Counted from the stretch's first letter, positions 58,773 through 61,122 are shown. The stretch is 64,000 nt of DNA from Gammaproteobacteria bacterium (GCA_965243205.1 CBDEUK010000002.1:1440001-1504000), one strand, 5' to 3'. Notes: a model not told the origin generated them from the sequence alone. Numbers and translations: made by a program.

Positions 58773-59363
58773 TTATTCAGATAAATTAACAATCTTAGAT
58801 ACTGCCTCTAAACGTTTATCTCTGCCGCATGAATAACGATAATATTTATATTTTAAAGAGTTTTTTAGATAGTAATCTTGATGGTACTCCTCGGCATGAT
58901 AAAACGGTTTTGCCAAAATAATTTCTGTTACTATTTTCTCTTTACCTTTTATTTTAGCTTGTAATTCTTTCTTTGATATTTCAGCCAATTTTGCTTCTTG
59001 TTCATTATTTGGGAATATAGCCGCTCGATATTGTGGTCCTTTATCACAGAATTGCCCTCTATCATCAAATGGATCAATGTTCTTCCAAAAAACACCAAGT
59101 AACTTTTCGTAACTGACAACAGTAGGATCATATTCAATTTCTATCGCTTCATAATGTCCGGTTTTACCTGTCGATGTTTTTTTATAGGTAGCATCTTCTT
59201 CTGAACCACCTGTATAACCTGAAGTTGTCCTTACGACACCTTCAACTTTATCGAATGGCTTTTCCATACACCAGAAACAACCACCCGCAAATAATGCGAT
59301 TTTTGTTTCTGCAGTAACATGAATACTTACGAAAGATAAAATAACAACAAGAATATAGCGCAT
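58773..59363 (-). CDS. msrA: Exported methionine-S-sulfoxide reductase
   Basis: AGGCFWC, GYTGG, AEEYHQDY; Sec signal from ATG 59363. Confidence 0.93.
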   Translation of the reverse strand: MRYILVVILSFVSIHVTAETKIALFAGGCFWCMEKPFDKVEGVVRTTSGYTGGSEEDATYKKTSTGKTGHYEAIEIEYDPTVVSYEKLLGVFWKNIDPFDDRGQFCDKGPQYRAAIFPNNEQEAKLAEISKKELQAKIKGKEKIVTEIILAKPFYHAEEYHQDYYLKNSLKYKYYRYSCGRDKRLEAVSKIVNLSE

Positions 59364-59364
59364 A

Positions 59365-59877
59365 TCAACCTCTAAGCTCAGGTAATGGTTTATCATCAGG
59401 AACAAATTTTAACGCCAAACCATTATTACAATAACGCAACCCGGTTGGTTTTGGACCATCATCAAATACATGGCCTTGATGACCACCGCAGCGAATGCAA
59501 TGATATTCTGTTCTTGGCCAGAATAACTTTCTATCCTCTTTGGTACCAAGTCGTCCGGTTATAGGTTGATAAAAGCTAGGCCAACCCGTTCCGCTTTCAT
59601 ATTTTGTTTCAGATTCAAATAAAGGTAAATAGCATGCCGCACAAACAAATGTGCCTTTTTCCTTCACATCATTTAGCGCACTACTGCCTGGTGGTTCCGT
59701 GCCTTCTTCAAATAAGATATGAAATTGGTCATCCGTTAAAATTGATTTCCATTTATCTTCACTAGTATCGAGTGGTGTTTTATCAACCTGTTGATTAACA
59801 GGGTGAGCAATCAAAGTTCCTGCAGCTATTGCTCCTATACCACTCGCACCTAAAGTAAAAAATTGTCTGCGGTTCAT
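59365..59877 (-). CDS. msrB: Tat-exported methionine-R-sulfoxide reductase
   Basis: MNRRQFF twin-arginine signal; GTGWPSF, GHVFDDGP, RYCNN. Confidence 0.93.
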   Translation of the reverse strand: MNRRQFFTLGASGIGAIAAGTLIAHPVNQQVDKTPLDTSEDKWKSILTDDQFHILFEEGTEPPGSSALNDVKEKGTFVCAACYLPLFESETKYESGTGWPSFYQPITGRLGTKEDRKLFWPRTEYHCIRCGGHQGHVFDDGPKPTGLRYCNNGLALKFVPDDKPLPELRG

Positions 59878-59962
59878 AGTTAAACTCCGGAAATAGTTAA
59901 CAAAAAAGACCTTATTCAATCATGATAGTTCAGACTAGAACCGCAAATTACCATTTTGTAAT

Positions 59963-60346
59963 TTAGAGTGCGTCGCCTATTGTCCTAGGAGAAACCGCCC
60001 AGGCATCATCCAAAGGTGCCATCGCTCGTTTTGGTTTTAAACATAAACCCATAGCCACCGTCGAAGCTAGAATAGGGTTATCCATTTGATTTTTCCAGAC
60101 CAGTTGTATTGCCTCAAAAATACGGTCTTTGTGAGAATCGGTTACTGGGGCATTCTCAATGACTACCAATAAATCGCGTAATGACATACCTTGTTTGAAT
60201 TGATATGCGGCTTGATACACATCTTTAGCAAATAATTCACAAGTATGATCCATATTTTTTCGATTGGTATAATTAACAGGTTCTGCAGATGCAAGCGCTG
60301 CAAATATCATTAACCATATTATTAAACTGGCAATAAACATTCTCAT
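59963..60346 (-). CDS. Hypothetical secreted protein (two Cys)
   Basis: Signal peptide ending ASA; 127 aa; first gene after the putative attenuator. Confidence 0.65.
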   Translation of the reverse strand: MRMFIASLIIWLMIFAALASAEPVNYTNRKNMDHTCELFAKDVYQAAYQFKQGMSLRDLLVVIENAPVTDSHKDRIFEAIQLVWKNQMDNPILASTVAMGLCLKPKRAMAPLDDAWAVSPRTIGDAL

Positions 60347-60398
60347 TTTAATTTCTCACAGTTTCTATGAGCCTCCTATTGGTTGGTAAAAGTAATGC

Positions 60399-60438
60399 AA
60401 AAAAAAAGGCCACTGATTTTTCAACCTGTGGCCTTTTT
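60399..60438 (-). terminator. Intrinsic terminator (attenuator 3:4 hairpin)
   Basis: Minus strand: AAAAAGGCCAC-aggttgaaaaatca-GTGGCC followed by nine T. Confidence 0.85.
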
Positions 60439-60458
60439 AAAAATATTTGCTTTTGTTA

Positions 60459-60557
60459 TTACAAATACAATTCCTCGACACACAGGCAAGGGTTGACCAC
60501 ACACATAAATGCATGGCGCCAATAAATAACCTGTTTTGTCGATAGCTTTATATTCAT
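60459..60557 (-). CDS. Putative 32-aa leader peptide MNIKLSTKQVIYWRHAFMCVVNPCLCVEELYL
   Basis: ATG 9 nt after the -10 box; tandem TAATAA stops; ends 20 nt before the terminator. Confidence 0.65.
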   Translation of the reverse strand: MNIKLSTKQVIYWRHAFMCVVNPCLCVEELYL

Positions 60558-60566
60558 AGGGCGCGG

Positions 60567-60595
60567 ATAATGTTCTTAATTTCTAAAGTTGTCAA
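60567..60595 (-). promoter_or_regulatory. Sigma70 promoter of the leader transcript
   Basis: TTGACA-17 nt-CATTAT followed by GC-rich CCGCGCCC. Confidence 0.75.
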
Positions 60596-60702
60596 GTAAA
60601 TGGTTATAATTAAATCCTATATGAACTTTACATTGGGTTATTTATCTATTTTTCAATAACTTAAATTTATATATTTCTAATTTTAAGGATTACAGATTGC
60701 CT

Positions 60703-61122
60703 ATGCGAACTTTGCTTTTATCTTTTATATGTATGTTTATAGTTTCATGCAGCCAACCACCGGCAGTTGAAGCGATTCAAAATAGTATGGAAAAAATCGA
60801 AACCGCGGCTGAAAATAAAGATACATCCGCTATTATGAAATACATTCACGATAGTTTTCGTGGTAATGAACATCTTGATAAAACCCAGCTTCGAAAATTA
60901 TTGATGGTTCATTTTCTACGTCATAACAATATTACTGTGTTAATAACTCAAATGGACATCGAACATGATCCAACCCAACCATACTATGCAACAATGTCAG
61001 GCACAGTAGCGATTACAGGTGCAAAAAATATTCTGCCTCAAGATGGTAAAATTTATTCCTTAAAAGGAACTTGGGAATTCCATGGAGGCGATTGGTTATT
61101 ATCAGAGCTTACCTGGCAATAA
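60703..61122 (+). CDS. Hypothetical lipoprotein (NTF2-like fold)
   Basis: Lipobox IVSC; C-terminal 'W...GGDWLL...W'. Confidence 0.65.
   Translation: MRTLLLSFICMFIVSCSQPPAVEAIQNSMEKIETAAENKDTSAIMKYIHDSFRGNEHLDKTQLRKLLMVHFLRHNNITVLITQMDIEHDPTQPYYATMSGTVAITGAKNILPQDGKIYSLKGTWEFHGGDWLLSELTWQ

Follow-up and report, generated by a model that had tools for sequence, protein, structure and literature searches.

A candidate ribosome-operated transcription attenuator with a putatively leaderless transcript upstream of an orphan secreted protein gene in Gammaproteobacteria

Leader-peptide attenuation is a textbook form of gene control and, to our knowledge, nearly all described cases sense amino acids through runs of control codons that precede biosynthetic genes. 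In this study, we analyzed a candidate attenuator on the minus strand, at positions 60399 to 60595, of a 64,000-nucleotide (nt) stretch of DNA from a Gammaproteobacteria bacterium (GCA_965243205.1, CBDEUK010000002.1:1440001-1504000), which is referred to here as the window. An earlier note on this DNA had read the locus as a leader-peptide transcription attenuator upstream of an unknown secreted protein and msrBA. Family counts given below refer to the 126 genomes of the window's family, and alignment statistics derive from 44 complete elements.

The enterobacterial leaders trpL, hisL, pheL, thrL, leuL, and ilvL resemble the element in their short 5' open reading frame (ORF), their mutually exclusive 1:2, 2:3, and 3:4 pairings, their intrinsic terminator, and a decision that is made, or in the element would be made, by ribosome position. 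Unlike these leaders, the element has no control-codon run and no Shine-Dalgarno sequence, precedes an orphan secreted protein, and has its stop codon downstream of region 2 rather than in the interval separating regions 1 and 2. It also matches no Rfam leader model (18 to 21 bits versus 55), and the N-terminal part of its peptide looks conserved as protein. As predicted from the sequence, its proposed working is trp-type, yet two of the defining trp-type features, the control-codon run and the cognate biosynthetic target, are missing.

Other described systems share different parts of this arrangement. TnaC and SpeFL are nascent-peptide regulators of transcription that act through Rho-dependent termination and carry defined arrest motifs. 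CruR/Bp2923 is likewise reported to combine Rho-dependent termination with an arrest motif, RAPP (Roy et al. 2022, PMC9426467). The element is similar to these three in having a conserved upstream peptide without codon runs and in that translation status would decide downstream transcription. It differs in its use of an intrinsic terminator and an antiterminator and in that arrest is only putative; none of the 44 leader peptides carries RAPP or ends in proline. The polycysteine leaderless short ORFs of mycobacteria are reported to contain cysteine runs, to sense cysteine, and to unmask a ribosome binding site (RBS), which is translational control (Canestrari et al. 2020, bioRxiv 10.1101/834739). 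They share with the element a 5' short ORF, putatively leaderless in the element, that acts, or here would act, in cis on downstream genes via ribosome stalling and alternative RNA structure; the element differs by lacking a run, by having an intrinsic terminator, and by belonging to a gammaproteobacterium. A full-text literature search found no description of the element, the peptide motif not being searchable as words.

We propose, with a probability of roughly 65%, that the element is a ribosome-operated transcription attenuator, acting on a leaderless or nearly leaderless transcript, that controls the orphan secreted protein. The proposal draws on conservation, covariation, an open frame, gene linkage, and a computed dependence on ribosome position, from which we infer the transcription start, the translation, the stall, and its outcome. 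Transcription from a sigma-70-type promoter would begin at the AUG of a leader ORF of about 30 codons or no more than about 4 nt away from it, and the ORF would be translated without a Shine-Dalgarno sequence, as leaderless mRNA. The ORF would lie inside one long hairpin, in which region 1 (codons 7 to 10) pairs with region 2 (codons 24 to 27) around an apical stem. A strong intrinsic terminator, located about 70 nt downstream, would offer region 2 an alternative partner in its 5' arm. A ribosome running over region 2 to the stop codon, 9 to 21 nt further on, would block region 2, so that the terminator forms and an RNA of about 165 nt is released. A ribosome held in codons 2 to 20 would cover region 1 and free region 2, which would then capture the terminator arm and permit read-through into the gene of a secreted protein of 127 amino acids (aa), the presumed target of regulation. 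The features of the element in the window are as follows.

60590..60595, minus strand: -35 hexamer TTGACA (sequence and pattern scan).
60567..60572, minus strand: -10 hexamer CATTAT, separated from the -35 hexamer by a spacer of 17 nt (sequence and pattern scan).
60558..60566, minus strand: G+C-rich 9-nt discriminator CCGCGCCCT between the -10 hexamer and the ATG.
60459..60557, minus strand: leader ORF of 32 codons plus TAA, with a second TAA adjoining; ATG at 60557, no Shine-Dalgarno sequence.
60530..60542, minus strand: region 1, the 5' strand of the 1:2 pairing; codons 6 to 10, S-T-K-Q-V (fold and family alignment).
60496..60517, minus strand: apical hairpin within the ORF, 60517-60509 with 60504-60496 (fold and family alignment).
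60475..60487, minus strand: region 2, whose partner is region 1 or the terminator 5' arm (fold and family alignment).
60421..60433, minus strand: region 3, the terminator 5' arm; CACAGG at 60430-60425 is the antiterminator partner of CCUGUG at 60486-60481 (family alignment).
60399..60438, minus strand: intrinsic terminator; hairpin 60438-60403 overlaps the nine-U run 60407-60399 (fold).
60355..60376, minus strand: initiation region of the 127-aa gene; GGAGG at 60376-60372, about 26 nt before the start codon, followed by a CUCA/UGAG hairpin (44-locus alignment).
59963..60346, minus strand: presumed regulated gene, a 127-aa protein with a signal peptide and no known family (profile and structure searches).

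Promoter and alternative pairings

The minus-strand promoter, the ATG that follows the -10 hexamer after 9 nt without an RBS, the 32-codon ORF ending in TAATAA, and the GGCCAC/GTGGCC hairpin with its U9 tail were each located where the earlier note had placed them. The same was true of its 1:2 pairing, UCGACA-AA-ACAGG (60542-60530) being complementary to CCUGU-G-UGUCGA (60486-60475) in the window sequence, and of the CCUGUG/CACAGG pairing. The inverted repeat GGCCAC...GTGGCC and the nine T that follow it occupy 60433-60399, and an A/U-rich spacer separates the ORF from the terminator. The 170-nt RNA of the window folds at -54.9 kcal/mol (z = -5.16; none of 200 shuffles was equally stable) into a single long hairpin enclosing the ORF, plus the terminator. 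One DNA sequencing run carries this stretch unchanged, and three runs presumed to be RNA contained none of it, a result that has no bearing on expression. A start/stop-codon pairing (P1) seen in the window fold was rejected, as it is absent from the family consensus.

In a pattern scan of a 3-kb region, the promoter of the element ranked best (10 of 12 matches), and there was no general enrichment of promoter-like sites (12 found, 13.1 expected). The terminator was absent from the list of that scan because the pattern demands a loop of 3 to 8 nt, which is exceeded here. A search of Rfam 15 at a permissive threshold returned 13 weak matches, all far below gathering score. Among them, Phe_leader reached 21.1 bits and Thr_leader 18.1 bits versus a gathering score of 55, the former on the opposite strand across the terminator and the latter on the terminator itself.

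Across the family, 34 of 44 elements have TTGACA as the -35 hexamer, and 6 have TTGACT. The -10 hexamer is more variable (GAATAT in 16, CAATAT in 7, CATTAT in 3); nearly all elements retain A as its second base and T as its sixth. The discriminator is 7 to 10 nt long (9 nt in 31/44) and consists of 87% G+C, which is reminiscent of promoters under stringent control, such as rrnB P1. If positions closer than 6 nt to the -10 hexamer are disregarded, the first purine coincides with the A of the start codon in 26 elements and precedes the start codon by 1 to 4 nt in the other 18. There is no room for a Shine-Dalgarno sequence, and the ORF, if translated, would therefore be read from leaderless or nearly leaderless mRNA; by this geometry, the transcript would carry a leader of 4 nt at most.

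The pairings were evaluated in the 44-sequence alignment, with the following result.

Helix 1:2, columns 21-32 with 81-91: 81% of cells paired; both-side changes in 2 pairs.
Apical stem, columns 48-52 with 61-65: 95% of cells paired; AU 18, GC 18, GU 7 in one pair and CG 25, UA 9 in another.
Terminator 3:4, columns 151-163 with 174-186: 94% of cells paired; both-side changes in 4 pairs.
Antiterminator 2:3, 8 base pairs, columns 80-87 with 158-165: 96.3% of cells paired; AU 26, GU 11, GC 5, UA 1.

When the partners were slid by 1 to 3 columns as a control, only 23 to 52% of cells were paired. The three mutually exclusive pairings of trp-type logic that had been proposed for the window are thus kept throughout the family, and with compensatory changes. 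Of the three-segment antiterminator proposed alongside them, CCUGUG with its immediate 5' neighbors holds family-wide, and the segments UGUGGUC and UCAACC turned out to be specific to this genome. Compensatory changes join the ORF and the terminator 5' arm. Two bases of this arm are paired in the antiterminator in 42/44 and 44/44 elements and in the terminator in 22/44 and 36/44; since their pairing is more regular in the antiterminator, that structure best explains their conservation. A U-tract follows the terminator helix in all 44 elements, and the median hairpin energy is -20.9 kcal/mol. Invariant unpaired bases are an AA at columns 25-26 and a U at column 59.

A further helix could form across the spacer, between the sequence that follows region 2 and the sequence that precedes the terminator, and would bring regions 2 and 3 together. 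Its mean duplex energy was -5.55 kcal/mol, compared with -3.03 kcal/mol for shuffles, and it reached P ≤ 0.05 in 18 of 44 elements. In the window sequence, it was without support (P = 0.70).

Leader frame and ribosome position

The start codon occupies a fixed position at the 5' end of the element (43 ATG, 1 GTG), and the leader ORF is 29 to 35 codons long in relatives. In all 44 elements, no stop codon interrupts this frame between the start codon and the end of region 2; the other two frames are open in 0/44 and 21/44. This bears out the conservation of frame in homologues on which the earlier note had made its case depend. Indels of 3 nt occur in five genomes. The stop codon follows region 2 by 9 to 21 nt, and in 37/44 the interval from region 2 to the terminator contains stops in each of the three frames.

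Codon periodicity was evaluated for the unpaired columns of codons 2 to 19. Entropy at the three codon positions was 0.79, 0.69, and 1.29 bits, which gives a third-position excess of 0.546 (permutation P = 0.0095, on only 34 columns). No third-position excess was found in the other two phases or in the C-terminal half. Thr16 is encoded by ACC in 12, ACT in 11, ACA in 6, and ACG in 3 elements; Cys19 is kept in 43/44. Codons 14 and 15, always after W13, read HR in 25, RH in 18, and LH in 1. These data suggest that the N-terminal segment of about 19 codons is probably under peptide-level selection and that the rest would only need an open frame. Judged from the alignment, the C-terminal half (NPCLCVEE) is conserved as RNA and not as peptide. 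Of the peptide YWRH...NPCLCVEE, for which a search of relatives had been suggested, the N-terminal part looks peptide-conserved, and NPCLCVEE is kept as RNA only.

The same evidence bears on a different explanation, namely that a ligand, a protein, or another RNA binds the long leader hairpin and thereby sets the same terminator/antiterminator platform, and that the open frame is an untranslated by-product of structure. Codons 7 to 27 of the ORF are almost wholly base-paired with strong covariation, there is no Shine-Dalgarno sequence, and the C-terminal half is kept as RNA with frameshifts tolerated, all of which this RNA-only switch would account for. The invariant unpaired AA and U could be its contacts, and the fact that the antiterminator is favored without a ribosome in 38/44 recalls a riboswitch that is on by default. 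It would leave unexplained, however, why the frame is open in every element and the other frames are not, why the start codon is fixed at the 5' end, and why indels of 3 nt, third-position periodicity in the unpaired N-terminal columns, and three-frame stops after region 2 should occur. Moreover, there is no Rfam match, the best score being 21 bits versus a gathering score of 55, at the terminator. On balance, we consider a switch that works without translation unlikely.

To evaluate the dependence on ribosome position, folding was computed with a 27-nt footprint masked. In the full-length RNA at equilibrium, the terminator always won, with a probability of 0.99 under any ribosome mask, which is expected because the decision is kinetic. 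Full-length equilibrium folding is unable to discriminate, and transcripts ending before the terminator 3' arm were therefore used. With the P site at codons 1 to 19, the antiterminator probability exceeded 0.5 in 35 to 43 of 44 elements; this number was 22 at codon 20 and 0 to 1 at codons 21 to 29. The boundary at about codon 20 is also where the seemingly peptide-conserved segment ends. In the window sequence, the antiterminator probability was 0.00 without a ribosome and 0.87 to 0.98 with a ribosome at codons 2 to 14, a range that includes Y12-W13-R14 and agrees with the earlier proposal that a stall near Y12-W13-R14-H15 would free the 2:3 pairing. It drops at codons 15 to 17, where 1:2 closes around the masked ribosome, a closure regarded as sterically unrealistic in this model.

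A ribosome held in this part of the ORF could also respond to amino acid supply, and a classical attenuator that senses Trp, His, Arg, or Cys through the single codons W13, H/R14, R/H15, and C19 has to be weighed. Codons 13 to 15 comprise W with, in all but one element, one His and one Arg, Cys19 is nearly invariant, and the codons from W13 to C19 fall inside the stall window that permits the antiterminator. In addition, the stretch W-[HR]-[RH]-T resembles W-W-R-T of E. coli trpL. It should be noted, though, that the apical stem covaries, and the His-Arg/Arg-His swap at codons 14 and 15 therefore covaries with synonymous changes at Cys19; RNA pairing with the partner strand thus explains these codons. 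No run of any codon is present, and the putatively regulated gene encodes a secreted orphan, not a biosynthetic or charging enzyme. Amino acid supply as the signal therefore appears rather unlikely. The absence of a single-control-codon run and of a match to a known leader family had already been noted for the window, and the per-codon table extends it, with no repeated-residue run in any of the 44 peptides.

Because the N-terminal 19 or so codons look selected at the amino acid level and no codon run is present, our best guess for the signal is a nascent-peptide-dependent stall, possibly with a ligand or stress, in preference to a weak response through the Trp/His/Arg/Cys codons 13 to 19. More specifically, and only tentatively, the leader ORF may encode M-K-x-N-Y-M-T-K-Q-x-F-I-W-[HR]-[RH]-T-x-L-C as a sensory arrest peptide. 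Made from leaderless mRNA, this nascent chain, alone or together with a small molecule or stress, would hold the ribosome before codon 21 and thereby turn off the terminator that precedes the gene of the orphan periplasmic protein.

Several observations weigh against attenuation by a translating ribosome, or against parts of it. Most of the conserved codons fall in base-paired stretches, so that what looks like conservation of the peptide is in large part conservation of the RNA: columns 72-74 offer the invariant UGG a pairing partner in 33 to 42 of 44 elements, and the codons of K8, T7, and Q9 lie in or beside helices. The periodicity test is limited to 34 columns. Two genomes, G087 (-1 nt) and G120 (+1 nt), have the C-terminal half in a shifted frame and keep the nucleotides of region 2. 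The 44 peptides contain neither a control-codon run nor a recognized arrest motif. Leaderless initiation is unusual in Gammaproteobacteria, and it is promoter geometry that suggests it here. Furthermore, without a ribosome, the antiterminator was favored at equilibrium in 32/44 truncated transcripts by probability, and it was more stable than 1:2 in 38/44 (median difference, -4.1 kcal/mol); an untranslated leader may therefore read through rather than terminate in most relatives. In the window, this difference is +3.3 kcal/mol, the opposite of most relatives, so that the 1:2 "protector" is clear-cut in the window's genome and not everywhere.

If attenuation by a translating ribosome is correct, the element keeps the three-pairing logic without a Shine-Dalgarno sequence or control codons, before an orphan secreted protein. 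A peptide-dependent stall would make it a new sensory nascent chain with a simple, portable read-out, and dependence on leaderless initiation would make it a sensor of translation capacity. Either way, this element of about 250 nt would offer a handle on the conditions in which an uncultured marine lineage needs a periplasmic protein. Should the arrest peptide be real, it would found a new arrest-peptide family and newly combine leaderless initiation, nascent-chain sensing, and terminator/antiterminator attenuation, in Gammaproteobacteria.

Linkage to the secreted orphan protein

An initial DNA search gave matches of about 70% identity, from promoter through terminator, in other genera. The family was then searched with a covariance model of the ORF part, and the element was found in exactly one copy per genome in 46 of the 126 genomes (E values of 6.5e-7 to 1.2e-18). 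A search at the level of the order returned the same 126 genomes, the order consisting of this family alone. The 127-aa protein was found in 45 of these genomes, belonging to 10 of 34 genera. By profile and pattern search, a complete element lies upstream, on the same strand, in 44 of the 46 loci of the 127-aa gene; of the remaining two, one is cut by a contig end and the other is a second paralogue without the element.

Genomes with the element are the genomes with the protein, save three. In G098, the element lies at a contig end, and in G113, which has the protein, a contig end cuts off the leader. In G132 (locus L132, G132:C4:18000-22000), the leader and terminator are kept and the 127-aa gene is gone; a 1-nt deletion in the N-terminal half destroys the leader frame. 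This leader looks like a decaying remnant, although genome completeness is 85% and an assembly error is possible.

In each of five relatives examined, the gene next downstream of the element is a homologue of the 127-aa ORF, and msrB-msrA follow the 127-aa gene in the window's own genus only. The earlier description of the locus thus stands for the secreted protein, and msrBA falls outside the conserved unit. In a scan of one genome per species (185,579 species), the protein was present in 44 loci, all in uncultured gammaproteobacterial metagenome-assembled genomes, and a profile search of 1.84 billion representative proteins returned 29 relatives. Carriers of the element amount to about 45 uncultured marine bacteria.

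This linkage also bears on whether the element could be a stand-alone gene, for a small RNA or a protein of about 30 aa, kept for functional reasons beside a 127-aa gene that has its own promoter. A complete unit from promoter to terminator with a long U-tail and an A/U-rich spacer is what many small RNAs look like, and the spacer from terminator to gene reaches 626 nt in some genomes. A trans-acting attenuator RNA and leader peptide, moreover, are reported for Sinorhizobium, as rnTrpL and peTrpL (PMC6614838, PMC7298713). On the other hand, the element occurs once per genome and is tied to genomes with the protein, apart from the three named above, one of which has lost the gene. In 14 loci, the U-tract lies 34 to 52 nt from the start codon of the 127-aa gene, which leaves little room for a promoter, and the long spacers hold repeat-like insertions. 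Covariation between the ORF and the terminator 5' arm would be purposeless for a plain terminator, and the C-terminal half of the peptide is not protein-conserved. An independent gene is therefore quite improbable, and a function in trans of the terminated RNA or of the peptide would be compatible with attenuation in cis.

The 127-aa protein is predicted to consist of a signal peptide, four high-confidence helices (residues 33-102), and a disordered tail, with a mean predicted local distance difference test score of 75.7. Two of its cysteines are invariant. It belongs to no Pfam or NCBIfam family, and, as had been noted, the downstream gene is not biosynthetic. Searching Pfam with 16 of its remote relatives gave nothing above the curated cut-offs, and Foldseek against the PDB gave nothing at E ≤ 0.001. 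In a wide VIA-align search, the best Z score of 6.0 was within the helical-bundle background, and matches in the ESM Atlas were "hypothetical protein" clusters only.

Ahead of this gene, GGAGG is invariant in 44/44 loci at about 26 to 35 nt before the start codon, which is unusually far. A hairpin of 5 base pairs after GGAGG, whose structure was given by hand, shows 89% pairing and weak covariation; for this initiation region, RNAalifold returned no structure. The hairpin is CUCAU/AUGAG, and CUCUU/AAGAG in G019, G113, and G114. It could draw GGAGG and the start codon together or act as a second control point. A two-codon mini-ORF after GGAGG, AUG-AGA-UAG, was considered and dropped, since a start codon is missing at that place in several genomes (e.g., G019, G113, G114, and the G093 group).

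Neighboring genes and further observations

At window positions 58773-59919 on the minus strand lie msrB, with a twin-arginine-type signal (RRQFF), and msrA, with an N-terminal hydrophobic signal; by these signals, both methionine sulfoxide reductases appear to be exported. Cotranscription of the 127-aa gene with msrBA is possible because the pattern scan listed no terminator-like site between them. The divergent neighbor of the element (60697-61122, plus strand) encodes a putative 141-aa lipoprotein of no known family, whose homologue in a same-genus relative lies at a distance of two genes, on the far side of an integrase-like gene.

Immediately upstream of the leader promoter, 26 of 46 loci carry, on the same strand, a gene whose product is a Sel1-repeat protein of about 310 aa. 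The window lacks this conserved neighbor, whose product is a possible functional partner of the 127-aa protein. The paralogue without a leader element (locus L062, the second copy in G095) is preceded by a different terminator. Finally, the long spacers (e.g., in loci L037, L035, and L047) contain copies of a repeat-like motif, GGCCATGGATGGCC..TATGCCGCG, suggesting that these genomes carry a family of small palindromic insertions.

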